DNA of 64,000 bases from Candidatus Micrarchaeota archaeon (GTDB lineage: Archaea; Micrarchaeota; Micrarchaeia; Micrarchaeales; CABMGC01), in NCBI GenBank assembly GCA_021796225.1, contig JAJYOL010000005.1:597-64596 (forward strand), given 5' to 3'. Both the position numbers and the translations under genes were made by a program. Shown in pieces: positions 10,972 to 40,594 of the stretch. The notes below the pieces were generated by a model. It ran no database searches. It had not been told where the DNA came from and saw nothing but the letters and a program-made list of their open reading frames with translations. Position 1 is the stretch's first letter, and every line of letters starts with the position of its first letter.

Positions 10972-11016
10972 TGCATCGCAATAGTTATAGGGAATTGCAC
11001 CTTATAACGCTGCTGG

Positions 11017-11961
11017 TCATGGTGCCGTATATGAATTTTCCCACGAAGCGGTAAAAGATGCATCAACAGAATTTCCATTGTATCCGTTACCGCCATAGTC
11101 ATCAGCATTTCCATTCAATGGCCACCATCCAACTAAATACTGCAATTCTATTGGCGCTCCGCCTATTCCTTCCCGGTATAACGCGCCCACAGTATTTGCA
11201 GACAGAGGCATGTTGTATAATTGCATATTTGCTATTTGCAATCCTGAAGAAACTTCGTCACCTCCGGGAGGATTACTTCCAAAACTCAACGCAGGGATAG
11301 AGAAATTTGTCAATGCATTAGAACCCAATGCAGTAAAAGTACATGTTTTGGAAACGTTACCATTCACATATAATATTATTGAATCATATTCGCTTACAGT
11401 GATAACAACGTTGTAAAAACGATATGGGGTTATGCTATTCAACGGTGTAGAACAGGATTGAAGGGAAGGCCAATTTTCTCCGTACGTCAAATCATTGCCA
11501 GTATTTGCACCTAGTCCTGAAAAATCAAAATTTTGGTTTCCACCTATGCCGTTGTTAGTACTTGCATTATAGATGTCGTATATCGGTGTTGACCAAGGTG
11601 ATCCCACGGTACCGCCATAATATGTGCCGGCAGGATTATTATCTGAAAACCATAAAGCAATAGTAAAGTTTGTCGTAGCAAGAGCAAAATGCGTTCCTTC
11701 TAAAGGACGACCATTTAATTGCAATACATATTGCGGAAATTCACCGCTGCAAATTCCCTCAAGATTAATATCGTAATTTGTTCCGGGACCGTTGGGACGG
11801 AATACTTGGCAACTTCCAGGTTGCGCCTTAGGCGCAAAGTTTGAAGGACTGAATATTCCGAGTGAATAAAGAACGCCAAGGACAACCGCAATGACTAGTA
11901 TCGCCCATCCGTAGGTCATGAGATATTCCATTGCGGACTGTAGTCGTAATTTCATATTCAT
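11017..11961 (-). CDS. class III signal peptide (pilin-like) LamG/ConA-like domain protein, paralog A
   Basis: RLQSAMEYLMTYGWAILVIAVVLGVLYSLG N-terminus; LamG motifs FTIALW, LYVNG, NMQLYN, GWWPLNGNA. Confidence 0.85.
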   Translation of the reverse strand: MNMKLRLQSAMEYLMTYGWAILVIAVVLGVLYSLGIFSPSNFAPKAQPGSCQVFRPNGPGTNYDINLEGICSGEFPQYVLQLNGRPLEGTHFALATTNFTIALWFSDNNPAGTYYGGTVGSPWSTPIYDIYNASTNNGIGGNQNFDFSGLGANTGNDLTYGENWPSLQSCSTPLNSITPYRFYNVVITVSEYDSIILYVNGNVSKTCTFTALGSNALTNFSIPALSFGSNPPGGDEVSSGLQIANMQLYNMPLSANTVGALYREGIGGAPIELQYLVGWWPLNGNADDYGGNGYNGNSVDASFTASWENSYTAP

Positions 11962-11965
11962 CCCG

Positions 11966-12886
11966 TTATGGTGGGGTATATCCGCCTTGCCACATTCCTG
12001 TAAATATTACATTTGTTGGCACGCCGTTGTTATTGTTTCCACTGTAGTCGTTTGCATTGCCATTGAGCGGCCACCAACCAGTAAGATTCTGCAATTTTAC
12101 CGGCGCTCCCCCTATTCCTGCAGAATAAAGAGAACTGATTTCTACAGGCGTAAGGTACGTGTTGTATGTTTGTACATTAGACATTTTGCCATCCAATTTG
12201 CCTACCAAACTACCTTGACAACCCGTACTAACACCCCCAAATTCTATTAATGGATTTGGAATACTACTGGATATATTTTGTCCTGATACCGAATCGGAAG
12301 CCACACCGTTTAAGTATATAGTTATCGTGCCCGTGCCTGCACCCCCGTTAGCAAGGCTTATAGTGAGCATATTCCATGAGTTAAAAGGTATCACCACATT
12401 GGATGATGAACCATACCAATTACCTGTGTAATCTTTATTCCATGTTGATACAACTACAGGACTTGCACCTATGTTATATGAACCGCAACCTGGATCTCCA
12501 GCATAGTTGGTATACGCATCAAAAAAAGTGCCGCCTTCGTTCATATATATCCACATATTTATACTGTAAGAAGGGATATTTGCTATCGGATATGTATTAG
12601 CTACAATATACCCTGTTCCAGCAAATTGTGCGACGTATTGTGGAAGTTCGCCACTACAGGTTCCTTCTAAATTAATATTGTAATTGGTATTAGGTCCGTT
12701 AGGACGGAATACTTGGCAACTTCCAGGTTGCGCCTTCGGTGCAAAGTTTGAAGGACTGAATATTCCGAGAGAATACAAAACACCGAGGACAACCGCAATG
12801 ACGAGTATCGCCCATCCGTAAGTCATGAGGTATTCCATTGCAGATTGGATTTTCAAATGGTGCAAGCGTACTGACATAAATCCCAT
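11966..12886 (-). CDS. pilin-like LamG domain protein, paralog B
   Basis: KIQSAMEYLMTYGW...; SINMW, IYLNG, NVQTYN, GWWPLNGNANDYSGNNNNG. Confidence 0.85.
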   Translation of the reverse strand: MGFMSVRLHHLKIQSAMEYLMTYGWAILVIAVVLGVLYSLGIFSPSNFAPKAQPGSCQVFRPNGPNTNYNINLEGTCSGELPQYVAQFAGTGYIVANTYPIANIPSYSINMWIYMNEGGTFFDAYTNYAGDPGCGSYNIGASPVVVSTWNKDYTGNWYGSSSNVVIPFNSWNMLTISLANGGAGTGTITIYLNGVASDSVSGQNISSSIPNPLIEFGGVSTGCQGSLVGKLDGKMSNVQTYNTYLTPVEISSLYSAGIGGAPVKLQNLTGWWPLNGNANDYSGNNNNGVPTNVIFTGMWQGGYTPP

Positions 12887-12965
12887 ATCTTAGACACATG
12901 AATATTTTTTAAGCACACTGCTTGCATTGCTCGCGCTAATGAAATATGGAAAAGAAAAAGCAGAA

Positions 12966-14615
12966 TAGATGTAGTCTTGAGCTTAATGCGAGGTCGCGAA
13001 TAAACGGAATTAGCTTCTTTGCACACTTGTTTGTTCTCTAAACTTCTAATGAAGTTATGAGGTGATCTATCCGCAGGTTCCCCTACGGATACCTTGTTAT
13101 GCCTTAGCCCCCCTCACGAAACCTTAGTTCGAAAGCATCATACGATGCTGCGTCACTAAGGCCTCACTTGGATGACTTGGCAGGCGGTGTGTGCAAGGAG
13201 CGGGGACTCATTCACCGCTCGATAGTGACAAGCGATTACTAGGGATTCCAGCTTCATGAGGGTGAGTTTCAACCCTCAATCCGGACTTTGATTGGTTTTA
13301 GGGGATTGGCTCCTCATTTCTGAGTTGCAGCCCATTGTACCAACCTCTGTATGCCGCGTGTAGCCCTGAAGATTCGGACTATACTGACGTACCGTCGCCC
13401 TCTCCTTCCTCCTGCTTAAACGCAGGCGGTCTCGACAGAGTGCTCACGCCATCGCTGGCATGATAGCAACTGTCAATGAGGGTCTCGTTCGTTACCGGAC
13501 TTAACCGGAGATTTCACAACACGAACTGACGATCGCCATGCAGCACCTCTCGGCTTGTTAGGTAAGATCTTTAGTCTGGCCTTCATCCTGCCGTCGCTCC
13601 AGGTAAAATTTCCGACGTTGAATTCAATTAAACCGTAGCATCCACCCCTTGTGTGCTCCCCCGCCAATTGCTTTAAGTTTCAACCTTGCGGCCGTACTCC
13701 CCAGGCGGCAGACTTAACAGTTGTCCTACGATACTGCACCTATTCGTGATAGGTGCAACACCAGAGTCTGCATAATTTACTGCTAGGGCTACTCGGGTAT
13801 CTAATCCGATTCGTTCTCCTAGCCTTCGTCACTCACCGTCGGATGCGTTCTGGTCAGGCGCCTTCGCCACCGGTAGTCTTCATAGGATTATAAGATTTTA
13901 CCCTTACCCCATGAATACTCCTGACCTCTTCCGCTCCCTAGCCAAAAGGTATCTTATGCACTCGTTGACGTTATGCGCCAACATTTCACATAAGACGGTT
14001 TTAGCCGGCTACGGACTCTTTAAGCCCAATAATAGTGAACACCACTTGTGCCGCCGGTATTACCGTGGCGGCTGCCACCGGTCTTACCCAGCACTTATTC
14101 TCCAAGCTGACTAAACTTGGCAAAAGATGCACCGAAGTGCATCACTCAGACTCCCCTCATCACACTTACGTGCATTGTGAAGTTTTCGCGCCTGCTGCAC
14201 GCCGTAGCGCTAGGGCCATTGTCTCAGTGCCCTTCTCGGGGCTCTTACTCTCATATCCCCTACGGGTAATAGGTATGGTGGGCCGTTACCCCGCCATCTG
14301 CCTGATCCGACGCAGTCTCATCGCAGAGCGGTAGTGCTGCAATTTGCACACCTTTTGAGCTAGAATTCATTCCAGAATTTCTAGCCTATATGGTATTAGC
14401 CTCAGTTTCCCAAGGTTATCCCCTTCTCTGTGGTAGATTGACCACGCGTTACTGAGCCGTACGCCGCCCAACGAAGCCGTTGGGCTGACTTGCATGGCTG
14501 TCGAAATCTGATAGCAGTGTCCTCCAGCAGCATCGACTGGAGTTAATTAACTTAATTATGATGCTAAAGCAATTGCGTTTCGCGAGCCTCTTTACATTGC
14601 TCAAGACTACATCTA
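12966..14615 (-). repeat. inverted repeat forming the pre-16S processing stem
   Basis: TAGATGTAGTCTTGAGC (12966-12982) is the exact reverse complement of 14599-14615; pairing continues inward through GAGG/CCTC and TCGCGAA/TTCGCGA. Confidence 0.9.
13056..14544 (-). rRNA. rrs: 16S rRNA (archaeal, divergent, unlinked from 23S, no evident intron)
   Basis: Minus strand: 5' AACTCCAGTCGATGCTGCTGGAGG, GGCAGCCGCCACGGTAA, ATTAGATACCC, AAACTTAAAGCAATTGGCGG, GCACACACCGCC, TAACAAGGTA, 3' GATCACCTCA; about 1.49 kb; ends approximate. Confidence 0.98.
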
Positions 14616-14710
14616 ATTCCAATAGGAATTTTCACGTGCCACAGCATAAATGAACATAGTTAGAACAACTATGAATGAAGCTATAGCAAGATAACAATTT
14701 GTATGAATAG

Positions 14711-14720
14711 GTTTATATAC
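14711..14720 (-). promoter_or_regulatory. probable rRNA promoter TATA box
   Basis: GTATATAAAC on the minus strand, about 100 nt upstream of the processing stem. Confidence 0.55.
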
Positions 14721-14827
14721 GTTCGCCCGACCCAGCGGCATATAATATCAACGTCAACATGATGGCGGATTATTGCGTTTGGAAGGCATCCGAAATCGCA
14801 CTTTCATATCATATGCACGCCACGAGG

Positions 14828-15700
14828 TTATGGTGAGACGTATTCGCCTTGCCATGTGGCGCTATATCGAACGTCATATGGCACCCCGTCATTATTATTG
14901 CCGCTGTAGTCTTCAGCATTTCCATTCAAAGGCCACCAGCCTATGAGATGTTGCAGGTCTGTAGGCACGCCTCCGATACCTTCATTGTAGAGTGCGCTTA
15001 CGTCGTTAGCGGTTAACGACGCATTGTATATTTGAACGTTTGCTATTGAAAAGGACGCATTTCCAGCCATGCCAATGAACAGATCGCCATTTGCATTATT
15101 GAATGACATGTTTCCAGAGAGTGTTCCCTTATACGCCTGAACGCCGTTTACGTACGTATAAATGGAATTTGCAGAGGAATTGTACGTTCCGGTATAATAC
15201 TGCCATTTGTTTAACGTTGCGCTCGGAGTGACGGTAATCCACGCCTGTCCGTTTGGAGTAATTATGGACCAGATAATCTCCAAGCTGTTAGGATTCATAT
15301 ACATGAAATATTGGCTGTTTATGTGTTTGCCCACCATAACGGGAAACTGCCCTGCACCAGTGGCGGAAAAGGTATTCATCCAGAAGGATACTGTAACCGT
15401 CTGGGTCGGATTCAGCATTAATGAATTTGCAACCGTAACATATCCAGTTCTGTCAAATTGCGCAACATATTGTGGTAGTTCACCACTGCAAACCCCTTCA
15501 AGATTTATATCGTAATTTGTTCCGGGACCATTGGGACGGAATACTTGGCACGAACCAGGAGACGCCTTAGGCGCAAAGTTCGAAGGACTGAAAATTCCTA
15601 GAGAATACAAAACACCTAGGACGACCGCAATGACTAGTATCGCCCATCCGTAGGTCATGAGGTATTCCGTTGCAGATTGGAGTTTTGATCCCATATTCAT
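14828..15700 (-). CDS. pilin-like LamG domain protein, paralog C
   Basis: MNMGSKLQSATEYLMTYGW...; VTVSFW, TYVNG, NVQIYN, GWWPLNGNAEDYSG; ATG 15700 chosen by homology to paralog A. Confidence 0.85.
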   Translation of the reverse strand: MNMGSKLQSATEYLMTYGWAILVIAVVLGVLYSLGIFSPSNFAPKASPGSCQVFRPNGPGTNYDINLEGVCSGELPQYVAQFDRTGYVTVANSLMLNPTQTVTVSFWMNTFSATGAGQFPVMVGKHINSQYFMYMNPNSLEIIWSIITPNGQAWITVTPSATLNKWQYYTGTYNSSANSIYTYVNGVQAYKGTLSGNMSFNNANGDLFIGMAGNASFSIANVQIYNASLTANDVSALYNEGIGGVPTDLQHLIGWWPLNGNAEDYSGNNNDGVPYDVRYSATWQGEYVSP

Positions 15701-15705
15701 CCCGA

Positions 15706-16638
15706 TTACGGCGGTGTATATCCACCCTGCCATGTTCCGGTAAATATCACGTTTGTTGGCACGCCGTTGTTATTGTTTCCACTGTAGTCGTTTGCATTAC
15801 CATTGAGCGGCCACCATCCGACCAGATGTTGTAAATCTACAGGCGCAGCTCCGATGCCTTGACTGTATAAAGCGCTTATTGCATTGGCCGATAAAGTTGT
15901 ATTATACGTTTGCACGTTAGACTCATAACCTATCATGTCATTACCTGGACCAGTATGCCCTAACCCATACGCACCTAGTGTAAGGTCATTTTGAAGCCCT
16001 GCTGCGCCACCGGATGAAAACGAACATTCCTGGCCAGATACGTACAGTACCGATGTAGTGGCATTCATGGTCTCAACTACAAAGTACCACTTGTTCATAC
16101 TGATCCCATTAATATGGCAATTGCCGCTGGACCCGCCGTGTATGAAGAAGGTAAAACCAGTGCTTGTAGCCCCCGGATATGAGTTAGGATATGACTGCAG
16201 ACCTATGGCATTGTTAGATTCCGTGTTAGACCACCACTCCTGCACCCCGTTGGAAGAATTGAATCCGGACACTTCTATCCATCCAGTGTATGAAACAGAA
16301 TTCTGATAAAATCTAGGATTTAGGCTTGATATCCACACCAGAGAATCTTCGCCATTGAATCCTGCAACATACGTAGGCAGTTCGCCGTTACATGTGCCCT
16401 CCAAGTTCGCATCATACGATGTGCCTGGTCCATTCGGCCTGAACACCTGGCACGAGCCGGGCTGCGCCTTCGGCGCGAAGTTCAACGGATTGAAAATGCC
16501 TATAGAGTACAGCACGCCCAGAACGACAGCGATGACGAGTATGGCCCATCCGTAAGTCATGAGGTACTCCATTGCGGATTGGAGTTTCTGGTGCTTCATC
16601 ATGGATCGTGGTTTGCTGTTTCTGCAGGCCATAAGCAT
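15706..16638 (-). CDS. pilin-like LamG domain protein, paralog D (start may be 16602/16599)
   Basis: KLQSAMEYLMTYGW...; SYTGW, LYVSG, NVQTYN, GWWPLNGNANDYSGNNNNG. Confidence 0.85.
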   Translation of the reverse strand: MLMACRNSKPRSMMKHQKLQSAMEYLMTYGWAILVIAVVLGVLYSIGIFNPLNFAPKAQPGSCQVFRPNGPGTSYDANLEGTCNGELPTYVAGFNGEDSLVWISSLNPRFYQNSVSYTGWIEVSGFNSSNGVQEWWSNTESNNAIGLQSYPNSYPGATSTGFTFFIHGGSSGNCHINGISMNKWYFVVETMNATTSVLYVSGQECSFSSGGAAGLQNDLTLGAYGLGHTGPGNDMIGYESNVQTYNTTLSANAISALYSQGIGAAPVDLQHLVGWWPLNGNANDYSGNNNNGVPTNVIFTGTWQGGYTPP

Positions 16639-26516: not shown

Positions 26517-28025
26517 ATGGCTGAACAAGAGAGTGCGGAAAAAAACGTTCTTGCTACGTATAGGCTGAATGCGAAGGGCCTGATTGCCGACGTAATCATA
26601 CGCGATAAAGGAGGCTTCGTAAACGAATACGAAGTCAGCATGCAGGGCATAGGAAACGCTACAAAGGTGCTGCTTACTTCACTTAGGCCGGAACTGCTTT
26701 CCATCGTCCCCATAGATCCTTCAAGAGTCGACGATAAGGAATACGAAGCAGAACTCATACTCAAATATACTGACGCGTCCAATCTTGTAATAAACAAATA
26801 TCTTCCCGGAACAACTGAAGCGGTAAGGAAGATGCTTGTAGCTTTTATAATAAACATGCTGCTGGGGCTTGGCGAACTTGAGGTGCCCCTGTCCGACGAA
26901 AATCTTGAAGAAGTTGCAATAAACGGATCGCGCGATATGCTGTGGGTATTCCACAGACAATACGGATGGTGCAAGACCAACATCGCACTGAAAGATGAAG
27001 AGGAAATATACGACTATTCGGAACAGATAGGAAGAAAGGTTGGCAGGCAGATATCAAACCTCAATCCCCTTATGGATGCGGAACTGCTTGACGGATCAAG
27101 AGTCAATGCCACACTGTACCCAATATCCCAGGCAGGAAACACGATAACGATAAGAAAATTCTCCAAAAACCCGTGGTCCATGGTAGCGCTGGTTGCAAAC
27201 AAGACCCTTTCGCTGGAAATGGCGGCTCTCACGTGGCTATGCGTGCAGAACGAAATCAGTCTGCTCATATCTGGGGGAACGGCAAGCGGGAAAACAAGCT
27301 TCCTCAACGCATTGGGAATATTCATGCCTGCAAACAGGAGGGTCATCTCCGTTGAAGAAACGAGGGAACTTACGCTCCCTGATTTCCTGCAGTGGCTGCC
27401 GATGCTTACGAGACAGCCCAACCCGGAAGGAAAGGGAGAAGTCACGCTTTACAACCTCATGATAAACGCGCTGAGACAAAGGCCGGACATACTGCTTGTA
27501 GGAGAAATAAGGACAAAGGAAGACGCACAGACGCTTTTCGAGGCAATACATACCGGTCACGCGGTTTACGGCACGCTTCATGCGGACAATGCAAGCAACA
27601 CGATAGTCAGAATGAGCAATCCCCCCATTAACATTTCAAAGCTGATACTCAATGCATTGGGAGGCATAGTTAATCTCTTCAGGCATAGACGACTCGGGGT
27701 GAGGAGGCTTCTCGAGTTCGGTGAAATGCTCGGCAGCGGGGACATATCCGTAATAGAGAGATGGGACATAAACAACGACTCGTTCGTGAAAATAGGCGAC
27801 ATGACAAGGCTTGCCGATACGATAGGACTTTACAGCGGCTTTACCCGACAGGAGATATCACAGGATATAGTAGAAAAAGGAGAGATACTCAACTGGATGG
27901 TTACGAACAAGGTATCGATGGTCGATGATGCAGGATACGTAGTTGCAAATTACTACAAGAATCCGTCAAAGATCCTTCAGGCTGTGAAAGACAACGCGGC
28001 CTTTTCCAAAAAAATGTTTGGCTAG
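26517..28025 (+). CDS. type IV pilus/Tad assembly ATPase (TadA/VirB11/ArlI-like)
   Basis: GGTASGKT, SVEETREL, ALRQRPD, GEIR, HTGH...TLHA. Confidence 0.93.
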   Translation: MAEQESAEKNVLATYRLNAKGLIADVIIRDKGGFVNEYEVSMQGIGNATKVLLTSLRPELLSIVPIDPSRVDDKEYEAELILKYTDASNLVINKYLPGTTEAVRKMLVAFIINMLLGLGELEVPLSDENLEEVAINGSRDMLWVFHRQYGWCKTNIALKDEEEIYDYSEQIGRKVGRQISNLNPLMDAELLDGSRVNATLYPISQAGNTITIRKFSKNPWSMVALVANKTLSLEMAALTWLCVQNEISLLISGGTASGKTSFLNALGIFMPANRRVISVEETRELTLPDFLQWLPMLTRQPNPEGKGEVTLYNLMINALRQRPDILLVGEIRTKEDAQTLFEAIHTGHAVYGTLHADNASNTIVRMSNPPINISKLILNALGGIVNLFRHRRLGVRRLLEFGEMLGSGDISVIERWDINNDSFVKIGDMTRLADTIGLYSGFTRQEISQDIVEKGEILNWMVTNKVSMVDDAGYVVANYYKNPSKILQAVKDNAAFSKKMFG

Positions 28026-30035: not shown

Positions 30036-30044
30036 TGAAGGTTT

Positions 30045-31481: not shown

Positions 31482-34133
31482 TCATGGAAAACCTATAGAC
31501 TGCTGTTCATTCTGAATTTCAGTGTATAGGGAACTGAGATTAGAAGTCGTACTTCCAGAAAGGAACGGATAGGTCACGTTATAGGCAACACCATTATTAT
31601 TATTTCCGCTATAATCATTGGCGTTGCCATTCAATGGCCACCAGCCAACAAGATTTTGTGACTGTACCGGTTTACCAGCTATCCCTTCTTCAAATAGCTT
31701 ATGTAAAGTTGTTTCCGATAATGAAGCATTATACAATTGCACGTTTGTTATATTCCCAGGAAATATAGATCCATCGCATTGGGAGGTCTGAGTTCCTATA
31801 ACAACTAATGCATTATTTGTGTACTTATTCGCATTCGTAACGTTGGAACTATAATTGTCTAATTGGAAATAGTAATTAGGAGGATTTACACTTACTGCCA
31901 CAAAATGCCAATAGTCAAGGGACATAAGAGGTATGGAAGATTCCCACGTGTCTGCAGATGTGCAACGGTGGAGACCGATTTGATTTGAGATTGTGCTAAC
32001 TCCAGACCTAAAAAATTCCAATGCTTGATAAGAACCAAACCCAAAAAAAGGCATATTTGACGGCGAGTCCTTAGGCACATATACCCACATTGCAGCAGTG
32101 TAAGTAGTATTTGTACCTGCAATTTGTGGGACATTGGCAATTATTCGTGCATTGCTACTATATGATGTGGTTGCAGCGGTTCCGAGAATTTGTGCCACGT
32201 TGGTTCCCTGCCCACCAACTTCAATGGGAAGTGAATCTAATGTCACGTGGGGTAGTAGGGTATTTGCGCAGTACTGGTAGTTGGTACATGACATTATCCC
32301 GGGAATTGAAAATGCCATGGTGTTTGAAGTTTGAGTTCCGAATATGCTGTCTTCGGAATAGTTCCCGGGACGTGAATAGTTGATGTTGTGTGTAATGCTT
32401 GATGAGTTGGTACCTGAATAGTCGTTCGCATTTCCATTGAGAGGCCACCAACCGAAAAGATTTGGCGTATCTATGGGCAAGCCAAATACCCCTCTCTTGT
32501 ATATGGTTTCCACCTGCGTTCCGTTAAGAGACCCGTTATAGAGCTGTACGTTTGCCATGCTGCCGTTAAAAAATCGCGTGGTAAAGCCGCTTTGCATCCC
32601 GAATACCCAGTAATCAGAAGCAGACGTAACGGCATTTGTAGTTGATGGTATGAGTTGCCGTTCTCCGTTAAAATAGATAGTAGCATAAGTCGAATTCAGT
32701 GAATATCCTACAAAACTCCATTGGTGAAGAGGTGCAATAAAGTTGCTGGCCATGTTTGTTGTACGATTCCATAACAACAGGTGACCCGTTGTTGAGAGTG
32801 CGAATTGGTATTGTGCGTTATAATAGCCTCCGCCGTCGAATTCGGTTATGACTTCAAAGTTGCTTGTTCCGTAGTTAATCGGATATATCCACTGTAGTAC
32901 GGTAAGAGGATAGGCGAAATTACCTTTTCCCGTGATGTTGCTGTTGTTTCCATTGAAATTCGCAACTTCATGATTTGTGTTCAAAAAGGTAAACATGCCG
33001 TCGGGGGACGAATTGTACGTAGATCCTGAAGAGTATTGGTTGTATGACGGAGTGAATGGAGATGCAAAATAATACCCATTCATTATTTCGGATTGCAGGT
33101 TTGTTTCATTCATTGCTGCAAGGCGTGGTCCGTATAAAAGAATATTCTGGCCCGTCATAAAATGACTCAGATAACCGGATGTGCTTGCGTACTCGAGAAA
33201 CGGTATGTTTGGGATGTTTATCATGTTATAAGTCATTAAGCCCCCGAATTGTTCCGCTATGTCACATGTGGAATTGGTTATCTTAGTAGCATTCTGCGTA
33301 ATAAGTATTATCGATTTATTTACCGGCGAGGAGTCAAGCTGTGAAGGCACATAGTTGGAAAGAGGCAGTGCACCCGATGAGCATGTAACGCCGGAAGGGA
33401 CGGTAATGACCGTCCCATATATTATACCGGTGGAGTTTCCCGCAGTAGCTGTCCCATACATGGATATCGCAGGCTTCAATGGTTCAAATTGGATTGACTT
33501 CAGTTGTCCTTGTGACGCGTAGAGAATATCCTGCGTGCCGTTAAGAGGTATTGATACGTTTATCGGTAAATGGTAAAAATAGATTTCTCCTGTCGCATTT
33601 ATCTTTACATTGTATGTTACGGAAATGTTTAATGAGGAGTGTGAATCAGAACTTATCTTAAGCCCTGTTTGGTTTATCGTAACTACACGGAAAGTTGAAT
33701 TTGATATTTTTGCAAGGGCATCATCATATGAGGCAAGGGTCATGTTGCCCATTGCGGAAGTGAAAAAAGTATTTTGTGATGGTGTGAGACCTACCCCCGA
33801 TATCGTACCGTTGGCTATCAATCCGCTCATGTACGCACTCAGATTTGATATGAACACGCCTTTGCGCATCGACGGTGACAGTTCGAACGATGAAAGGGTA
33901 GATAGGGACCGTTCGGAGCTCATGAATAGGAACGTTGTTAATTCCGGACTAAGCATGTTTCCGTAATTCAGGCTTGTACTGGAAATTGCGACTTTCTGAC
34001 CGATGTTTTGATAGTTTACTTCTTCGACTACGAATATCATCAGTATAGACAGCATAAGAATAAACAGTATCAGAACTATCAGTGTCATGAACTGCGCTCT
34101 GGAATTGTTTAGTAGCAGTTTTTTCACTTCCAT
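31482..34133 (-). CDS. large pilin-like adhesin with two LamG domains
   Basis: RAQFMTLIVLILF N-terminus; Ser/Thr/Asn-rich; two GWWPLNGNANDYSG modules. Confidence 0.8.
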   Translation of the reverse strand: MEVKKLLLNNSRAQFMTLIVLILFILMLSILMIFVVEEVNYQNIGQKVAISSTSLNYGNMLSPELTTFLFMSSERSLSTLSSFELSPSMRKGVFISNLSAYMSGLIANGTISGVGLTPSQNTFFTSAMGNMTLASYDDALAKISNSTFRVVTINQTGLKISSDSHSSLNISVTYNVKINATGEIYFYHLPINVSIPLNGTQDILYASQGQLKSIQFEPLKPAISMYGTATAGNSTGIIYGTVITVPSGVTCSSGALPLSNYVPSQLDSSPVNKSIILITQNATKITNSTCDIAEQFGGLMTYNMINIPNIPFLEYASTSGYLSHFMTGQNILLYGPRLAAMNETNLQSEIMNGYYFASPFTPSYNQYSSGSTYNSSPDGMFTFLNTNHEVANFNGNNSNITGKGNFAYPLTVLQWIYPINYGTSNFEVITEFDGGGYYNAQYQFALSTTGHLLLWNRTTNMASNFIAPLHQWSFVGYSLNSTYATIYFNGERQLIPSTTNAVTSASDYWVFGMQSGFTTRFFNGSMANVQLYNGSLNGTQVETIYKRGVFGLPIDTPNLFGWWPLNGNANDYSGTNSSSITHNINYSRPGNYSEDSIFGTQTSNTMAFSIPGIMSCTNYQYCANTLLPHVTLDSLPIEVGGQGTNVAQILGTAATTSYSSNARIIANVPQIAGTNTTYTAAMWVYVPKDSPSNMPFFGFGSYQALEFFRSGVSTISNQIGLHRCTSADTWESSIPLMSLDYWHFVAVSVNPPNYYFQLDNYSSNVTNANKYTNNALVVIGTQTSQCDGSIFPGNITNVQLYNASLSETTLHKLFEEGIAGKPVQSQNLVGWWPLNGNANDYSGNNNNGVAYNVTYPFLSGSTTSNLSSLYTEIQNEQQSIGFP

Positions 34134-36253
34134 GAATACAACCCTATTTGATAGGTATTTTCAGCGTCTGAACTCTGATTCAGTGCGGGAACCATGGATG
34201 CAGATTTTGATACCTCGAACGACCCTGTCATACCTGGCGGCGTGTAATTCTCCCGTGAATATGTGACATTGAACGGATACGCTGCATTTGACAGCGGTCC
34301 GAAATCATTGAAACTCCCGTCGAGTGGATACCATGATAGCAGATTTATGTGAGATAGAGGTGCGCCCTGTATGCCACTTTTGTAAAGAGCCTCCGCCTGA
34401 TGTGACGTTAAAAGGTAATTGTATATTTGCAGATTTGCAATTGTGCCATTGTAAGCATAGGTGCTATTGCTGAATGTCAGATTGTTTATCCCTTGTATGC
34501 TCTCTCCAGATATGACGCCCGAATTTATGTTGGTTCCGTTAAGATATACATCATAAACCACGTTGGATCCGAAATTGCTTGCAGTGACGATAACGGACTG
34601 CCATCTGTTCGTCTGTATGGTATTTGAAAGGTCTATTGTATTTGCGGTTCCGGGATTTAATATTAATGAATTATTGGTGGAAAATCCTATGCGCCATGTT
34701 CCTCCAGGATTGCTGTCTATTGGAAACTGTGTTTTTCCCGTACTTCCTTTAGGATACAGCCATACGCTCATTGTAAGACCGCCCTGAGGAATAAAATTGC
34801 CTCCGGTTACCGCATAACTGTTTTTCCCATTGAAATTTGCCAGGCGCATGGAGGGCAATGCATATCCATCATAGAACAGGCTGTAATTGGACATCGGAGC
34901 AACGCTGTTGATAAGATAATCTCCGCAGCTTCCATCTCCGAAAAGGAACAGAGACGTAGCTGAAGAGAGTAACGATTCCGATGGATTCACGTTGCAAGCG
35001 CCGTATGCGAGTATCGTATTACCTGCTGACACGTAAAGCCTTCCGTATGCAAGCGTCATGTTGGGGTATATGTTTGGATACGGAATGCGCGTGTACCATT
35101 GCATTGCCCCGTTTGACATGCTTTGCGCTTCGATATATCCGTTCGACCATAATGTGTATATTTCACTGCCCCCTATGACAGGACTTGATGATGCCATTGC
35201 AGTTCCAAATAATGAAGATGCATTTGAATACCATAATACGCTTTTTATTGATGTCAAAACGGATACCCCTTTAGTGCCTTGATATACAGCATACGGCGAT
35301 GCGTACGCCACACCAGTAATGCCAGATGGAGAAGCGTAACTGTAAAATAACGTATTATTGATGTTGGTTTGGTTTGCAACGATGCCGTCACCGTACAAAA
35401 GCAGCTGCCCCATCGCTGCGATTTTTGATACGGCAGCTGATAATGGAGAAGCCCATATCTCAACCTGTTGTGACAGATGTTCGAGATTGGTAAATAAGTA
35501 GATATTTCTGCCGGAACCCGATACTGCAATCGATCCGTCGGCAATCGCTATTGATGTTGGATATCCGCTGGAAAGCTGCACGGACGACATCACGGTTCCG
35601 TTGTCCGGATTCATCGTGTAAACATAGCCGTTGGCAGCCCCGAGTATGAGTTCCCCGTTGTACAGTTTCAATGCCGCGGAAGGAGATGTCGATGAAAGGG
35701 CATTTGTCGTCCAAATCGTGCTCCCGTTATACGCATTGACAGCAGTGACGTTTGGTGAATCCCATATTATCACCTTGCCGGCATAGATTACGGGAGTGCC
35801 TTCGATATTATACGCTTCGCTCTGCGACCATAGCGACCTTCCGGAAGCGTTCATTGAAAATAATTTTGACCCTGCACCGAAGAATATGTCACCGTAATCC
35901 GCGGATATCCCCGTAGTTACTACAGAATTTACCGGGATTATTTCAGATAGCATGGATTTGTACGGACCATACTGATTATAACCGGAATTCCCCGAATCGG
36001 ATTGGAACTGTGTCCATGTCTCCCCGGAACCGTTGTATTGCGACAGTATGTCGTATGTCGTGCCGATGGTACTCGTATTTGCTAATGAAGACATGTTGGC
36101 CTCTGACAATGCTATCAGAACCTGTCCGGAATTTTCCGAACTTATTATGTAAGGCATTGGCGAATAAGGGTGAAAGAAAAGGAGGATGGACACGCCTATC
36201 GAAGCTATGACTATTGCGAACAGGGCATCAAGCGTAAATGTTATTGCCTTCAT
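34124..36253 (-). CDS. pilin-like protein with PQQ-type beta-propeller and LamG domain
   Basis: MKAITFTLDALFA N-terminus; AVNAYNGSTIW, TMNPDNG, SNGAMQW propeller repeats; C-terminal LamG. Confidence 0.8.
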   Translation of the reverse strand: MKAITFTLDALFAIVIASIGVSILLFFHPYSPMPYIISSENSGQVLIALSEANMSSLANTSTIGTTYDILSQYNGSGETWTQFQSDSGNSGYNQYGPYKSMLSEIIPVNSVVTTGISADYGDIFFGAGSKLFSMNASGRSLWSQSEAYNIEGTPVIYAGKVIIWDSPNVTAVNAYNGSTIWTTNALSSTSPSAALKLYNGELILGAANGYVYTMNPDNGTVMSSVQLSSGYPTSIAIADGSIAVSGSGRNIYLFTNLEHLSQQVEIWASPLSAAVSKIAAMGQLLLYGDGIVANQTNINNTLFYSYASPSGITGVAYASPYAVYQGTKGVSVLTSIKSVLWYSNASSLFGTAMASSSPVIGGSEIYTLWSNGYIEAQSMSNGAMQWYTRIPYPNIYPNMTLAYGRLYVSAGNTILAYGACNVNPSESLLSSATSLFLFGDGSCGDYLINSVAPMSNYSLFYDGYALPSMRLANFNGKNSYAVTGGNFIPQGGLTMSVWLYPKGSTGKTQFPIDSNPGGTWRIGFSTNNSLILNPGTANTIDLSNTIQTNRWQSVIVTASNFGSNVVYDVYLNGTNINSGVISGESIQGINNLTFSNSTYAYNGTIANLQIYNYLLTSHQAEALYKSGIQGAPLSHINLLSWYPLDGSFNDFGPLSNAAYPFNVTYSRENYTPPGMTGSFEVSKSASMVPALNQSSDAENTYQIGLYSWK

Positions 36254-36784
36254 TTATTCAACACCGAACGTCGTATTTGTCCATAAAATTATTTGCATCG
36301 TTGCTGGGGATCCTCCGACTATCACAGGGACAGTTGCCACTTGATCAGACATGGAGTGTCTGCCATTGGGATTAAGCCCCATGCTGAAGTTGAACTGTGA
36401 ATTGGATATTGTTATGTAGTAATCGTAACCGACACCCAATGCTTGTTTAGTGGATTGATAATTATAATTGGACATTGCCATCAGAGAAAATATTTTGGTT
36501 GTTGACATATTTAGGGGATTTCCGGTAGAAAGGCCCACGGTCATGTTGTCCCATGTTGTAATATTTGACGGGTTGATGATGTTGTTCCAATTGCTCGGTG
36601 CGCCTTGACCCAATAATTTTGCCTCGACCCCTTGAAGTTGCCCCATTATGCTCTCCACCCCATACCCGTTCGTTATCGCAAACTGATTGCTTACGTTATA
36701 CCATACGAAGGTCATTATTATTATCGCGGTACCGAATATCACGGAAGCGAAGATAGCATCAAGGGACCAAAATTGCAATTTCAT
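36254..36784 (-). CDS. minor pilin-like protein
   Basis: MKLQFWSLDAIFASVIFG hydrophobic N-terminus; GAPSNW; ATGA overlap with the upstream gene. Confidence 0.75.
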   Translation of the reverse strand: MKLQFWSLDAIFASVIFGTAIIIMTFVWYNVSNQFAITNGYGVESIMGQLQGVEAKLLGQGAPSNWNNIINPSNITTWDNMTVGLSTGNPLNMSTTKIFSLMAMSNYNYQSTKQALGVGYDYYITISNSQFNFSMGLNPNGRHSMSDQVATVPVIVGGSPATMQIILWTNTTFGVE

Positions 36785-39700
36785 GGATACCAACTCATTG
36801 GGATAAATTCGGATTGCGTCGGAGGCATCCCGCTTGAATATAACTCTTGCACCTGGAAATGCGTAAGTGATGTGTTGTATAGCAGCACGTCGGCTATTGA
36901 TCCGCCCCAGTGATAACCGGAAGATTCGCTCCCTATTGTCAGCGGATTTGAGGTGTATGCGAGTGACGTCGAGAAATTTGCTCTTTTTTTCTCTTCGCTG
37001 CCGTCATAGTATAGAACGGCCGTAGTGCCGTTATAGGTTGCTGTGACCATGTTCCATTGCGTGTCGACTTCGGCATTGGCCCAGGACAACGCCAATGCGT
37101 CATTTATGTAGAGATTTATAGTTGTATCAGAACTGCCGTTTACCCTGTGCATGAGTATGGTATATTCACCGCTGTTGAATACGCCTTTTGCGATTACCGC
37201 AGCGTAGTCTTCCCCTGTTGAAGAGGGGTATCTGATGCCATCCCATTTTATCCATGCGCTTACGGTAAACGCATTAGGAGCAAAAGAAGTTGATGTCGGA
37301 ATGGAAACGTTGCTGTTTGCACCATTAAAATTCAATCCGAACGAACCGTAAGAGTTGGACAGAACCTTGGGAGTAACATTGTAGTCTATGTAGCTCAGAG
37401 AAGTTGCCGTGCCGTTATCTGAATATGCACTATAGTCATTCGTATTTCCATTCAATGGCCACCATCCGATCAGGCTTGCCTGTGACTGCGGGAATGAAGA
37501 CGGACCTGAAAGGTACTCTGAGATTATACTCTTCGAATTTATGCCGCTTGAATATACCTGTACGTTACTCAGTGTTCCGAGGAAATTTCCGGCAATTGCA
37601 GCAGTTGACGTAGAATTGTAATTTATGGCGTTGTCAGAACAGGAATGGCTGGCTTCCAATTGTCCATCAACATAAACGGAAATTGACGAGCCGTTGTATA
37701 TCCCGGCAACCATGTGATTAAGACCGTCGAAAAGATATTGTGCGCCTTGTGCGGAGCAGCTCCCCCAAGTATTTGTAGACTCCTTTACCGTGAAATTCAA
37801 ATAACCGTTGTGAAGTCCGAACAAATACCCATAATTCTGACCAGAAGGCGTTTCTGCAAAGTATTCAGGGCTTGCTGAAGATTGAGTAACACTCGCATTT
37901 TCCCATAATGTAACCGCCACAAAACCAGAAGGCTGCAAAGCGGAGTTGTTTGCCACGGTTATTTTTGACACGCCATTCATTTGCGGAGTCAACAGAGACA
38001 TGCTTCCATAAACAGGTTGTTTTGGATTGAAAGGTGAAGAGCTTACATAGAAACCCGTACCGTTATTCCTATACGACGAGTAGTCTATCGCGTCACCATT
38101 CAATGGATACCATGCAGCTATGTCAGTAGTGACTAAAGGAGAGGCTCCTATACCTGCTTTGTATAATGACATTATTTGCGTTGAAGATAGTGAAGCGTTG
38201 TATAACTGCACATTTGATATGCTGCCGTTGAAATAAGAGCTTATTGCCGAGCATCCGCCTCTTGCGCCTATCTTCATGCAGCCGGCATTATGCGCCATCG
38301 TATTGCTATTCGCCGGGACGATGTTGTTTTCGAGTACTCCGTTTATGTATTGCTTCTCGTGAGTCCCGTTCCACGTAACCGCAACGAATGTCCATGTATG
38401 AAGCGGTATTGCCATCGGTGAATTGTACCATGCCCAATTAGGAGATATTGCAGATGAAAGATAACCGGTTGAGCAGGTGGTCCCCATTTCGTAAGAATTT
38501 TCCTTGTTTAGTATTATCCCTCTATCTGAAGGGCAGAGATACGAGTTCAGGTATATCCATGCCGACATGGTTATATAGCTCACGTTCTGCGCGTTTGAGC
38601 TGGGAATACTTACGTAGCTGCTGTAGCCGTTGAACTGTGTCGTAAATGAAGGATTGTCCCATGATGCATTGTGTATCGTTCCGGTATTGTTATTTCCGCT
38701 GATATCATATGCTTTCGAGCCGAAATTCGCATCTAAAGGTACCCAGAGTTTGAGATATTTTTGATTGGAGAGATTGCCGTTGAATGCCGTCGCGGTAACG
38801 CTTGCGTATCCGTCCGTTTTACCCTGGGTGAGAAATGCCCGTGCTATTCCGCTTGAATTGGTTTTACTGGAATAGTAAGGACCCTTGCTTGAAAAATTCC
38901 CCAACGAGGAAGTGAAGCCCACCAACGCACCACTTAACGGAGTCCCGTCCCGTGTTTTTACGAGTGCAGAAACCTGTGCAACGGAACCGAATGGTACGTA
39001 TCCGATTACAGATCCTTCTGATGATACACCAGTATAATCGTTAGCATTTCCGTTGAGCGGATACCAGCCTATGATTGAATTTGAAACAGGCGCACCGCCT
39101 ATGCCGTTGTTATACAGAGTCGCTGCTTGTTTTGAAGTCAGTGAAGAATTGTAGACCTGTACGTTTGCTATGCTGCCGTTGAACACGCGCGTGTTATTGT
39201 TTTCGTCTATACCTATCTGCAGTGCATGAGGCAATGACAGGGTAACCGGAGACCTCAACACGTTTGCATCTACAAGAACCCCATTCACATACGCATTTGA
39301 AAGATAGCTGCTTCCCGAACCGTTATATGTAACCACTATGTTTGTCCATTTTTGATTCGGTATCCCGAATTCCATATCTCCTGTGGTGCCTGCGACGCTC
39401 GGATCCACCCAGAAGTCTGCAATCGTCTGGCTCGCGGACAACCCCCAGCCGTATGCACCGTTGTTTGAAGAGATTATGCCACAGTACACGCTGCTTTGAC
39501 ATGGGCCTGCCGTGTACACCCAGACGGATACCGAAAAGTTCTCGTGAAGCGTATTTGACGGGTACGTGAGAGTGGTGTTAATATTGCCGAGATTGCCGTT
39601 GAAGGCAGGCGCAAGATACGTCTTCGATGAGACACTTATGCTTCCCGACGCATTGTCGAGATTCGGACATGCGTAGTCTATGCAAATGTTTCCGTTCGAA

Positions 39701-40116
39701 TTTGTTATTGTCAGGGTACCGTTAGTTATTGGTATGCTGTACATTTCAGGATTACTCGGAACAACGAAGGAAGGATTCGATGCTATTTCGTCCGCAAGGC
39801 TGAATGCCACCGCGGTAAGCACCTGTTTTGCTATGCTCGATGAAACAAATACTTCACCATTCTCAGTTACATTCAACGAATAGTACTCTATGGTACCGCT
39901 TTCCGGAAGCTGAAACGTATATGTGTAACCATTGCCTGCTTGAGCTGCGGTGTTAAGCTCGCTTGCTATATCCTGGGAAACGAGCTGCAAATGTGAATTC
40001 AACTGGTCATTGAGAACAGATGCACGTTGATTTGCTATGGTAACGAATATAACCGAAAAGAGTAAGATTACAAATGCGAATATCACCATATATTCCAATG
40101 CGATTTGTAACTTCAT
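36781..40116 (-). CDS. giant pilin-like adhesin: pilin N-terminus, LamG, Big_1 Ig-like domain, three further LamG domains
   Basis: MKLQIALEYMVIF; DGTPLSGALVGF...TNSSGIA invasin-type Ig motif; four LamG repeats. Confidence 0.82.
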   Translation of the reverse strand: MKLQIALEYMVIFAFVILLFSVIFVTIANQRASVLNDQLNSHLQLVSQDIASELNTAAQAGNGYTYTFQLPESGTIEYYSLNVTENGEVFVSSSIAKQVLTAVAFSLADEIASNPSFVVPSNPEMYSIPITNGTLTITNSNGNICIDYACPNLDNASGSISVSSKTYLAPAFNGNLGNINTTLTYPSNTLHENFSVSVWVYTAGPCQSSVYCGIISSNNGAYGWGLSASQTIADFWVDPSVAGTTGDMEFGIPNQKWTNIVVTYNGSGSSYLSNAYVNGVLVDANVLRSPVTLSLPHALQIGIDENNNTRVFNGSIANVQVYNSSLTSKQAATLYNNGIGGAPVSNSIIGWYPLNGNANDYTGVSSEGSVIGYVPFGSVAQVSALVKTRDGTPLSGALVGFTSSLGNFSSKGPYYSSKTNSSGIARAFLTQGKTDGYASVTATAFNGNLSNQKYLKLWVPLDANFGSKAYDISGNNNTGTIHNASWDNPSFTTQFNGYSSYVSIPSSNAQNVSYITMSAWIYLNSYLCPSDRGIILNKENSYEMGTTCSTGYLSSAISPNWAWYNSPMAIPLHTWTFVAVTWNGTHEKQYINGVLENNIVPANSNTMAHNAGCMKIGARGGCSAISSYFNGSISNVQLYNASLSSTQIMSLYKAGIGASPLVTTDIAAWYPLNGDAIDYSSYRNNGTGFYVSSSPFNPKQPVYGSMSLLTPQMNGVSKITVANNSALQPSGFVAVTLWENASVTQSSASPEYFAETPSGQNYGYLFGLHNGYLNFTVKESTNTWGSCSAQGAQYLFDGLNHMVAGIYNGSSISVYVDGQLEASHSCSDNAINYNSTSTAAIAGNFLGTLSNVQVYSSGINSKSIISEYLSGPSSFPQSQASLIGWWPLNGNTNDYSAYSDNGTATSLSYIDYNVTPKVLSNSYGSFGLNFNGANSNVSIPTSTSFAPNAFTVSAWIKWDGIRYPSSTGEDYAAVIAKGVFNSGEYTILMHRVNGSSDTTINLYINDALALSWANAEVDTQWNMVTATYNGTTAVLYYDGSEEKKRANFSTSLAYTSNPLTIGSESSGYHWGGSIADVLLYNTSLTHFQVQELYSSGMPPTQSEFIPMSWYP

Positions 40117-40123
40117 GCAAACA

Positions 40124-40594
40124 CTATACTACAGGGGACATATACACGCACGATACCTGTGGATATGTAGGGCACGACGAATAAGATGTCACGTTTACTA
40201 GATATGTACCGGTTGATGTGATGCCCCCAAGATTACCGGTAACGTTAATAGGGGTATATGAGGTTATGTAGCTTAATCCGCTTGGAGAGCTTATAACGAA
40301 TATTATTTCGTGGCCGACGCTGTTGTTCGGCGTTCCGAGATATATGTATCTTATTCCAGGAGGAACCGATAGCTGCACGACCTGTTTTGCAGGAGGACCT
40401 TCGCTGCCTACAAGAGTTGCAATGCTCGCGAGCTTTCCCGATGCCTGCTGTGCCTCTATTGCTGAAAGAGATGAATTGGCGCTTGAAACTTGTATGAATG
40501 CTATTGTCACTATCGGAAGCAAGATGGCTAAGCCTATGGTAAGTGTTATCAGAAGTTCGAAGCTCGCTTGTGCTTTATACCTCTTCATCCTCAT
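40124..40594 (-). CDS. pilin-like protein
   Basis: KAQASFELLITLTIGLAILL class III signal (Q+1, E+5); start 40594 or 40588. Confidence 0.78.
   Translation of the reverse strand: MRMKRYKAQASFELLITLTIGLAILLPIVTIAFIQVSSANSSLSAIEAQQASGKLASIATLVGSEGPPAKQVVQLSVPPGIRYIYLGTPNNSVGHEIIFVISSPSGLSYITSYTPINVTGNLGGITSTGTYLVNVTSYSSCPTYPQVSCVYMSPVV

Follow-up and report, generated by a model that had tools for sequence, protein, structure and literature searches.

The window analysed here, a stretch of 64,000 nucleotides from a 0.79-Mb Micrarchaeota assembly, carries a 16S rRNA gene with two related protein-coding genes on either side of it:

11017..11961, minus strand: paralog A, a 314-aa ORF for a pilin-like LamG protein (mature part from QSAMEY, ~307 aa)
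11966..12886, minus strand: paralog B, an ORF for a pilin-like LamG protein that lies 171 nt downstream of the 3' end of 16S
13057..14543, minus strand: 16S rRNA, a complete archaeal SSU (RF01959, 1372 bits, model positions 1-1478 of 1478)
14828..15733, minus strand: paralog C, an ORF whose likely start lies near 15700 (14828..15700), giving a pilin-like LamG protein of 290 aa from MNMGSKL
15706..16638, minus strand: paralog D, an ORF for a pilin-like LamG protein

All four reading frames are intact, lie on the same strand and, as the original prediction had stated, share nearly invariant ends (the N-terminal ~75 and C-terminal ~70 residues) around a middle that can barely be aligned; B, C and D have an overall identity to A of 46-49%. 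The gene between B and C proved to be a full-length archaeal SSU rRNA, with no linked 23S or 5S gene inside the window, and the C-termini of B and D are alike, again as predicted. The further proposal that the genes form two matching pairs, derived by duplication of a two-gene unit, did not hold: core identity among the four is 15-19%, neither A and C nor B and D are sisters, and the nearest paralog of each gene lies outside the four (0 of 4 are nearest to one another). The B-A and D-C junctions do resemble each other, but the same arrangement, TAA-N-GGGATGAATATG, was found at tandem junctions on contigs C6, C7, C8, C10 and C14, indicating that it is a trait of the family rather than special to the pairs. 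A low GC content (~37%) had also been claimed; a dip is measurable (0.380 at 11200-11599, against ~0.45 for the genome), but it is weak, as the cores average 0.425 (range 0.347-0.502), compared with 0.453 genome-wide.

A search of the genome itself returned 46 matching places, and the family comprises 31 full-length and 2 short copies at about 14 places on six contigs. Paralogs therefore flank the 16S gene as described, but the array is not limited to that gene, where only 4 of the 31 full-length copies reside. ORFs with a QSAMEY-type N-terminus account for 4.7% of the assembled bases of this genome (G000), which is 82.7% complete and estimated at roughly 1 Mb. Across the 31 aligned copies, column conservation runs at 0.82-0.99 for mature residues 1-70, drops to 0.1-0.4 in the core, where G, S, N and T are abundant, and returns to 0.6-0.88 over the last ~70 residues; this constant-variable-constant layout, originally read from the four genes, was borne out in all 31 paralogs and in 120 homologs.

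The proteins begin in the manner of archaeal type IV pilins and class III signals, with a short charged leader, a putative processing site and then a hydrophobic stretch of ~20 residues. The leaders are short and basic (4-15 aa, with K or R at -2 in 30 of 31 copies) and are followed by QSAMEY, which places Q at +1 and E at +5, by about 22 hydrophobic residues, and by a conserved two-Cys linker behind the hydrophobic helix. The -1 position departs from this pattern: the available text of PMC4371748 gives G, A or S as required there in processed archaeal prepilins, whereas cleavage before Q, if assumed, would leave L (22 copies), I (5), M (2) or A (2), so that 29 of 31 copies carry L, I or M. 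An alternative site after QSA would put A at -1 but an uncharged residue at -2. In the N-terminal 50 aa, no pilin or class III signal model of Pfam matched at E <=10, and none of NCBIfam matched, although such models are short and weak and a miss is poor evidence; phmmer against PDB sequences likewise matched no pilin. The same or a closely similar N-terminus is present on a 179-aa protein and on larger proteins of 682 and 773 aa.

Inspection of the remainder of the proteins points to a lectin-like fold. Laminin_G_3 (PF13385, cut-off 27.6 bits) matched B (38.3 bits, E 1.9e-09) and C (71.2 bits, E 1.4e-19) above the cut-off and D just under it (25.5 bits, E 1.7e-05). A has no PF13385 match, Pfam giving weak ConA-like matches only (TS_C, 0.0018); against the family profile over its full length, it scores an hhalign probability of 100% (E 9.4e-87). 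The AF2 model of C (pLDDT 82) comprises an N-terminal helix (residues 10-34) and a jelly roll (79-280), with the conserved linker at residues 44-71 uncertain (pLDDT <50). Residues 73-290 of this model match 4dqa best (Z 22.1, rmsd 2.6, 199 residues), followed by PAPP-A (Z 22.0), pentraxins (Z 17-19) and laminin/neurexin LG domains (Z ~15), and they align in sequence order with whole LamG/pentraxin-like domains, as a superposable two-sheet beta-sandwich. Each protein has one complete predicted jelly roll of the LamG/pentraxin-like type, with the conserved C-tail as its last strands. Constant strands stand at both ends of this fold, the first two and the last few, and the middle strands and loops are wholly different between copies. 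Even Cys counts (30 of 31 copies), N-X-S/T sequons (median 4 per protein) and the scarcity of charged residues (only 8.4% of the core) hint, at the level of sequence, at an extracellular location. The predicted pilin-LamG nature of the proteins is thus supported, in the form of pilin-like proteins with a LamG domain. For a shaft pilin, a subunit of 290 aa that bears a bulky jelly roll is large, which counts against the explanation favored below.

The same window also encodes pilus machinery and larger LamG proteins:

26517..28025, plus strand: type IV pilus/secretion assembly ATPase (PF00437 T2SSE, E 3.1e-33), 10 kb from A-D
28938-30035, plus strand: first T2SSF-type platform protein (PF00482)
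30045-31037, plus strand: second T2SSF-type platform protein (PF00482; E 1.7e-15 and 2.7e-14 for the two)
31482..40648, minus strand: operon of giant multi-LamG surface proteins (883, 709 and 1111 aa) and small ORFs
40124-40648, minus strand: small ORF of this operon with a class-III-like N-terminus (leader and hydrophobic motif)

The giant proteins match Laminin_G_3 in 4 stretches, at up to E 1.2e-67, and the LamG unit, including the tail motif, is common to them and to the small pilin-like family. An A24 prepilin peptidase was not found in this 82.7%-complete genome; it scores above threshold in 22 of 25 relatives, among them the nearest one, G007.

Over the 465 pairs of copies, median pS/pN values are 0.69/0.074 for the N-terminal and 0.79/0.23 for the C-terminal region; in the core, pN is 0.60. 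The constant ends are accordingly near synonymous saturation, indicating that their constancy is kept by purifying selection rather than by cassette switching, and that homogenization is rare. The longest exact match between two paralogs has a median of 18 nt and a maximum of 146 nt and falls within the conserved ends in 459 of 465 pairs; few pairs have exact end tracts of 50-146 nt, and recombination in the conserved ends is sporadic. The diversification proposed for the cores was not reflected in dN/dS, as orthologous cores of this genome and G007 are under purifying selection, with omega of 0.08-0.19 where measurable. Together, these data show birth-and-death evolution of the family, in which each core is under purifying selection.

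Comparison with G007 (both genomes are incomplete metagenome bins) revealed that the 2+2 arrangement around 16S and its syntenic flanks are kept, and that the cores differ at three of the four positions. The core of A has no counterpart among the G007 loci compared; that of B finds its best counterpart, 43% identical, at a different locus, the G007 gene at the B position being closest to C10_17638 of this genome (60% core identity); and the G007 gene at the C position has an unrelated core. D, by contrast, is 96-97% identical in protein sequence to its positional counterpart in G007, with a core pS of 0.06 against 0.855 for the adjoining MTAP gene, and the high-identity tract extends over ~16722-15840. 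A second pair, C14_28360, has a core pS of 0.305 against the same 0.855; identity reaches 93-97% for D, C7_6570 and C14_28360, although the two genomes are otherwise at synonymous saturation, and for 18 of the 31 cores the G007 loci compared offer no counterpart. Where genes are relocated or near-identical, their flanks cannot be aligned. Contigs from another study hold a D allele that is 94% identical, and also a different core beside the 16S leader. A D gene 97% identical beside saturated housekeeping genes indicates that gene-sized units are exchanged and relocated; D is a recently exchanged allele, and such units have been relocated within genomes and exchanged between lineages. The comparison thus found, in line with the original prediction, strongly different repertoires in the two closest genomes, with signs of exchange by whole genes.

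For DPANN archaea, Micrarchaeota among them, physical contact with a host cell is a necessity. We consider it likely, with moderate confidence, that A-D are four members of a ~31-strong modular family of type IV pilin-like surface proteins in Micrarchaeota (DPANN). The constant parts would act as an assembly scaffold, supplying membrane insertion, probable processing by the lineage's A24 prepilin peptidase and the base of the lectin fold; they would also pack in or on a type IV filament that the products of the neighboring ATPase and platform genes would build. The variable part would form the exposed binding surface, in which case the cell would carry a repertoire of lectin-like adhesins; their targets may be glycans or other surface molecules of a wall-less Thermoplasmatales host. 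The family probably helps attachment to the host. It represents a concrete candidate for a host-recognition repertoire, with ~31 different lectin-like surfaces on a pilin-type assembly module, that takes up almost 5% of a ~1-Mb genome and whose turnover or movement between lineages far outpaces the rest of that genome. A more tentative extension, possible but in our view doubtful, is that the N- and C-terminal modules double as scaffold and as portable recombination handles, with populations sharing a library of lectin cores and swapping gene-sized units between loci and species-level lineages. If this were true, units swapped together with their own upstream regions would reassort host-recognition specificity horizontally, far faster than the genome diverges. 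The near-identity of D, C7_6570 and C14_28360 across the two genomes and the 18 cores lacking a match among the compared G007 loci fit this idea.

Neisseria pilE/pilS also combines constant and variable pilin regions and recombines through conserved segments; its one expressed locus is accompanied by partial copies that are silent and lack a promoter, and gene conversion is frequent. The original prediction had envisaged programmed diversification of a similar kind, in which the constant ends serve as recombination sites for cassette switching and the essential 16S gene acts as an anchor that keeps the array from collapsing. The confirmed constant-variable-constant layout, the longer exact end tracts shared by some paralog pairs, and the different cores at three of the four positions around 16S within a syntenic 2+2 setting would all suit such a system. 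In contrast to pilE/pilS, however, each of the 31 copies is a complete gene with its own start, leader and upstream region, and there are neither silent partial cassettes nor a single expression site; moreover, the ends are near synonymous saturation, a typical longest exact match is short, and the cores are of old origin and constrained by purifying selection. These properties speak against a dedicated diversification system, which we regard as very improbable, and antigenic variation of the pilE/pilS type is rejected, as it needs silent partial donors and near-identical ends, neither of which is present. The role of 16S as a recombination anchor is unsupported: 27 of 31 copies lie elsewhere, arrays of 3-4 copies persist without an rRNA gene, and 15 of the 19 relatives whose 16S flanks were compared have no family gene near 16S. 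Signals read by eye, namely a TATA-like box ~170 nt upstream of 16S and a T-run followed by an A/T-rich TATA-like box in the 16S-B gap, also suggest that 16S and B have promoter-like and terminator-like elements of their own. The genome does have a diversity-generating retroelement, on contig C2, but the only variable repeat that its template repeat matches lies in an unrelated 214-aa ORF. None of the family members matches the template, so that the family was rejected as a target of this element.

Sulfolobus sugar-binding proteins with class III signal peptides (the bindosome) offer a comparison for a different reading, in which the proteins are pilin-like but are not pilus subunits, and the class-III-type N-terminus anchors or exports lectin domains into a surface layer or pseudopilus-like assembly. 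Such lectins would bind host material or nutrients at the membrane; the non-canonical -1 residue fits this proposal, the lack of a pilin HMM match fits atypical signal use, and the large globular domain suits a surface better than a shaft. Membrane-associated pilins of Haloferax volcanii can, according to the available portion of PMC4371748, promote adhesion without pili. We nonetheless find this reading rather unlikely, because type IV pilus machinery is present, because an N-terminal helix that is invariant in 31 copies and shared with the 179-aa pilin-like protein argues for co-assembly with a common partner, and because lectin-bearing modular pilins do occur in real pili, as described in part of PMC9934059. 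Least probable of all is that repeated ends caused chimeric joins during assembly or binning, making the 2+2 order and the near-identical D allele unreal. Among the Logan contigs listed, none bridges the conserved gene ends or 16S, so the gene order rests on the original assembly; in addition, the G007 16S is split over two contig ends, and 16S is 98-100% identical between genomes with saturated housekeeping genes, which could reflect consensus collapse. Against this, contigs of run X1 match all four cores and the outer flanks on either side without a single mismatch, at a uniform depth of 26-34, single contigs join the 16S leader to C, D to MTAP, and A to its flank, the independently assembled G007 has the same 2+2 order and syntenic flanks, and the two D alleles differ at 27 positions, indicating that they do not derive from the same reads.

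The modular pilin-like family that we favor has partial precedents. The locus had been put forward as an undescribed system, but Micrarchaeota are already on record as having expanded LamG proteins with a connection to type IV pili: the available text of PMC5498576 describes, in the Mia14 genome, expanded jellyroll LamG-like genes, some of which are linked to type IV pilus loci and lie on a genomic island, proposes a role for their products in host interaction, and reports pili-like contacts between ARMAN and Thermoplasmatales cells. Phylum and domain family are the same as here; in that portion, the account does not include the pilin-type N-terminus, the invariant N- and C-terminal modules, the 31 full-length copies, the synonymous saturation of the ends or the inter-lineage exchange of gene-sized units, and the published expansion thus gains a defined architecture and evolutionary mode. 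PilC of Streptococcus sanguinis, as presented in the accessible part of PMC9934059, is likewise built from a class III signal peptide, a pilin moiety and a grafted ConA-like lectin module, a glycan binder that modelling places at the tip of the pilus. PilC is, however, a bacterial, PilA-dependent, single-gene product of 52.8 kDa with an extra Ig module, whereas here ~31 archaeal paralogs of ~31 kDa carry LamG directly behind the Cys linker, and the likeness is one of architecture, by description. The Haloferax volcanii pilins PilA1-PilA6 are also scattered paralogs with an almost completely conserved hydrophobic domain, any of which one machinery can assemble and whose adhesive properties differ; as far as the available text of PMC4371748 goes, they are six small pilins with a canonical -1 residue and with neither a lectin domain nor a conserved C-terminal module.

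The adjacency of A-D to 16S is one placement among about 14 and looks incidental. A co-oriented pilin gene lies directly downstream of 16S in this genome and G007 and, independently, in another relative (G018), and this position could be a favored landing or expression site.

Inspection of the locus shows four minus-strand paralogs (A-D) surrounding the 16S rRNA gene. Each is an intact ORF, and a complete archaeal small-subunit rRNA gene lies between B and C:

11017-11961, minus strand: paralog A
11966-12886, minus strand: paralog B
13057-14543, minus strand: archaeal small-subunit rRNA gene, complete (RF01959, 1372 bits, full model)
14828-15733, minus strand: paralog C (likely start MNMGSKL near 15700)
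15706-16638, minus strand: paralog D

Nearly all residues are common to the four proteins over their first ~75 and last ~70 positions, with a middle portion that is barely alignable; overall, B, C and D are 46-49% identical to A. The C-terminal ends of B and D are alike, and the B-A junction resembles the D-C junction, so that the original prediction described the sequence itself accurately: four paralogs, constant ends, divergent cores, and matching B/D ends and junctions. GC content is 0.380 at positions 11200-11599, but the core dip is weak (0.425 versus 0.453) and follows from residue composition, and we rejected it as a sign of foreign origin.

The four genes belong to a far larger family within the same genome (G000; 789,309 bases in 15 contigs, estimated 82.7% complete). 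Searching with one paralog returned 46 matching places, and a motif scan recovered 33 family ORFs (31 full-length), distributed over contigs C6 (which carries the four genes), C7, C8, C10, C13, C14 and C15, most arranged as tandem runs of two to four. ORFs with a family-type N-terminus, a handful of which encode short (148-179 aa) or large (682 and 773 aa) proteins, make up 4.7% of the assembled bases. Across the 31 copies, column conservation is 0.82-0.99 in mature residues 1-70, drops to 0.1-0.4 in the core and recovers to 0.6-0.88 over the last ~70 residues; core identity across all 465 pairs spans 7.5-33%, with a median of 17.5%. The original prediction had read D-C and B-A as two copies of a duplicated two-gene unit bracketing 16S. 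However, core identity among A-D is only 15-19%, the tree makes no member of the four the nearest paralog of another, and the shared junction, TAA-N-GGGATGAATATG, recurs at tandem junctions on C6, C7, C8, C10 and C14; being family-wide, it does not mark a particular pair, and together these results indicate that no such unit was duplicated. One three-gene tandem run (C8:53339-55996) uses TAG stop codons and carries the junction TAGGTAAGGCACATGAAATC identically after its first and second genes, unlike the common GGGATGAATATG junction; the genome search reported these genes as read-through frames containing one or two TAG codons.

Pfam Laminin_G_3 matches B, C and D, and A instead matches the family profile along its full length. 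An AF2 model of C, built from a 120-sequence alignment (mean pLDDT 82, pTM 0.75), comprises an N-terminal helix (residues 10-34), a low-confidence conserved linker (44-71) with two invariant cysteines, and a beta-sandwich (79-280). Its closest structural matches are 4dqa (Z 22.1, rmsd 2.6 over 199 residues), PAPP-A (Z 22.0) and pentraxins (Z 17-19). In this model, the jelly roll takes its first two strands from the constant N-terminal part, and its closing helix and strands from the constant C-terminus. We considered whether the C-terminal tail (WWPLNGNA-DYSGN) might be a first LamG strand, either through circular permutation or as a donor strand for the next subunit, but rejected this possibility because the alignment of residues 73-290 with whole LamG/pentraxin-like domains is collinear, indicating that the tail forms the last strands of its own domain. 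The Foldseek matches also include the jelly-roll subdomain of clostridial neurotoxin binding domains; it comes lower in the list than PAPP-A, 4dqa and the pentraxins, reflects the generic fold of ConA-like proteins and implies nothing about toxicity. Three features hint at an extracellular location: cysteines are even in number in 30 of the 31 copies, the median protein has four sequons, and charged residues are scarce in the cores.

The N-terminus of the family looks, by sequence, like that of an archaeal prepilin: a basic leader of 4-15 aa, with K or R at position -2 in 30/31 copies, precedes Q-S-A-M-E (placing E at +5) and then ~22 hydrophobic residues. Caution is nonetheless warranted, since L, I or M occupies position -1 in 29/31 copies, where archaeal prepilins are said to require G, A or S (PMC4371748), and since HMM searches with curated pilin models found no match to the family; a PDB sequence search was likewise without a useful match. 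Candidate machinery lies in the same stretch of DNA:

26517-28025: T2SSE-type ATPase, 10 kb from the four genes
28938-31037: two T2SSF platform genes, 10 kb from the four genes
31482-40648, minus strand: operon of giant multi-LamG surface proteins (883, 709 and 1111 aa; 31482-40116) plus small ORFs, one of them class-III-like

The giant proteins carry up to four LamG_3 domains, together with PQQ-like beta-propeller and Ig-like domains, and their operon and the type IV pilus genes (ATPase and platform) lie back to back. No A24 prepilin peptidase turned up in the incomplete (82.7%) G000 genome; among 25 relatives, 22 score above the cut-off for this enzyme, and the nearest relative, G007, is one of them.

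Between paralogs, synonymous difference (pS) is close to saturation at both ends (median 0.69 N-terminal, 0.79 C-terminal), and non-synonymous difference (pN) is 0.074 and 0.23 in these regions and 0.60 in the core. Near-saturated synonymous sites combined with low pN show that the constant ends are held by purifying selection on the protein rather than by frequent gene conversion. The ends do undergo sporadic recombination: the longest exact match between paralogs has a median of 18 nt and reaches 50-146 nt in a minority of pairs, and it is located in the conserved ends in 459 of 465 pairs. For orthologous cores of G000 and G007, omega is 0.08-0.19 where measurable, a range that indicates purifying selection, as opposed to hypermutation. 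Core variation driven by a diversity-generating retroelement (DGR) was also rejected, as the single variable repeat of the G000 element sits in an unrelated ORF. That element lies outside the window on contig C2 (L036:8374-10523) and comprises a reverse transcriptase (PF00078, E 5.7e-17), a ~96-nt template repeat beside it and an adjacent integrase gene; its one variable repeat in G000 falls inside a 214-aa ORF without a Pfam match, and 14/14 mismatches are on template adenines.

The locus is syntenic on both sides in G007, which has an equal 2+2 arrangement around 16S, and the housekeeping neighbors of the two genomes retain 70-86% protein identity with saturated synonymous sites (pS 0.855 for MTAP, the gene adjoining D). 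Against this background, the gene at the D position is 96-97% identical in protein, with a core pS of 0.06, in a high-identity tract running from ~16722 (the MTAP stop) to ~15840. At the A, B and C positions, the G007 cores have no detectable relationship to those of A, B and C. The G007 gene at the B position instead finds its best match in a copy on another contig, C10_17638 (60% core identity), with bodies at background divergence and unalignable flanks. Two further copies, C14_28360 and C7_6570, are near-identical in G007 (93% and 96% core identity, respectively), and the C14_28360 pair again has unalignable flanks. Overall, a G007 counterpart exists for 11/31 G000 cores at >= 50% identity and for 13/31 at >= 35% among 15 G007 loci fetched, with both bins ~82% complete and some missing counterparts possibly unassembled. 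The 16S gene and its leader (13057-14729 against L001/L002) are 93-100% identical between the two genomes, whose neighboring genes are synonymously saturated; the high identity could be a recent rRNA exchange or consensus collapse at contig ends, since in G007 the gene is divided between the ends of two contigs.

Public read runs were compared as assembled contigs, leaving out joints below 95% identity and uncovered parts in X2, X3 and X5, which we attributed to other paralogs or organisms. Contigs of run X1, possibly the source sample, cover all four cores with 0 mismatches at a depth of 26-34 and connect C with the 16S leader, MTAP with D, and A with its own flank; none of the pieces listed bridges the conserved ends. 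The D allele occurs at 94% identity in three other runs, one from a different study. An X5 contig passes from the 16S leader through 782 unrelated letters to a D-like N-terminus, and thus independently shows a different core beside 16S in another population.

The original prediction further proposed that the 16S gene could act as a recombination anchor and protect the array from collapse. Among 19 relatives whose 16S flanks were fetched, family genes are next to 16S only in G007 (2+2) and G018 (one, immediately downstream). In G013 a family gene sits 3.5 kb off on the opposite strand, and G016 has a weak fragment. The remaining 15/19 relatives have no family gene near 16S, among them the same-genus G003, G009 and G004 on the sides that their contigs cover, and tandem arrays elsewhere in G000 persist without an rRNA gene. 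Apart from the arrangement itself, nothing supports the anchor hypothesis. Transcription of B by read-through from the rRNA promoter was tentatively set aside: judged by eye, a TATA-like box precedes 16S, and the interval between 16S and B holds a T-run and an A/T-rich, TATA-like box belonging to B. In the relatives G012, G017, G023, G024 and G025, 16S matches the query in two pieces with a ~500 bp gap at query ~1046-1052, so that the 16S rRNA gene of this family-level group may carry an insertion or intron.

Beyond G000, a large protein database yielded 2288 homologs at E <= 0.001 among 2952 candidates, named, where a source is given, as LamG domain-containing proteins of Candidatus Micrarchaeia or Micrarchaeaceae. 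Matches at E <= 1e-20 occur in 23/25 relatives of the same order, at 0 to 23 per genome versus 35 in G000, a count biased toward G000 by the origin of the query. In one relative (G023:C1:583634-590410), four copies with identical scores are spaced exactly 1974 bp apart, a recent tandem amplification unlike the old, diverged G000 copies.

Jellyroll LamG-like genes have been described as expanded in a Micrarchaeota genome, some of them tied to type IV pilus loci and situated on a genomic island, with a proposed role in host interaction (PMC5498576), and reports on other DPANN groups mention LamG proteins (PMC7414124; PMC9563170). Streptococcus sanguinis has a pilin with a glycan-binding ConA-like lectin module (PMC9934059), and Haloferax volcanii has multiple pilin paralogs sharing a conserved hydrophobic domain (PMC4371748). 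Makarova et al. 2016 (PMC4858521) contains no mention of LamG, Micrarchaeum, ARMAN, DPANN, jelly or lectin, and the open-access article texts searched yielded no description of an archaeal pilin-LamG fusion with invariant ends, of its copy number or of its exchange between lineages. The family is real and biologically meaningful, and is best read as a putative repertoire of modular lectin-pilins for host attachment, evolving through birth-and-death together with cassette-like exchange; neither the duplication of a two-gene unit nor the rRNA anchor is supported.

Directly downstream of A is an unannotated 172-aa ORF (10453-10971, minus strand) whose first ~70 codons (10766-10975) are ~96% identical in nucleotides to G007 and ~92% to contigs from three other runs, with identity falling to ~70% over the remainder of the gene; recombination or an overlapping element may account for the high-identity start. 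Adjoining MTAP is a predicted surface protein of 410 aa with CARDB/NEW3 domains (17528-18760, minus strand), which begins with a signal-like segment and ends in a hydrophobic anchor and a basic tail.
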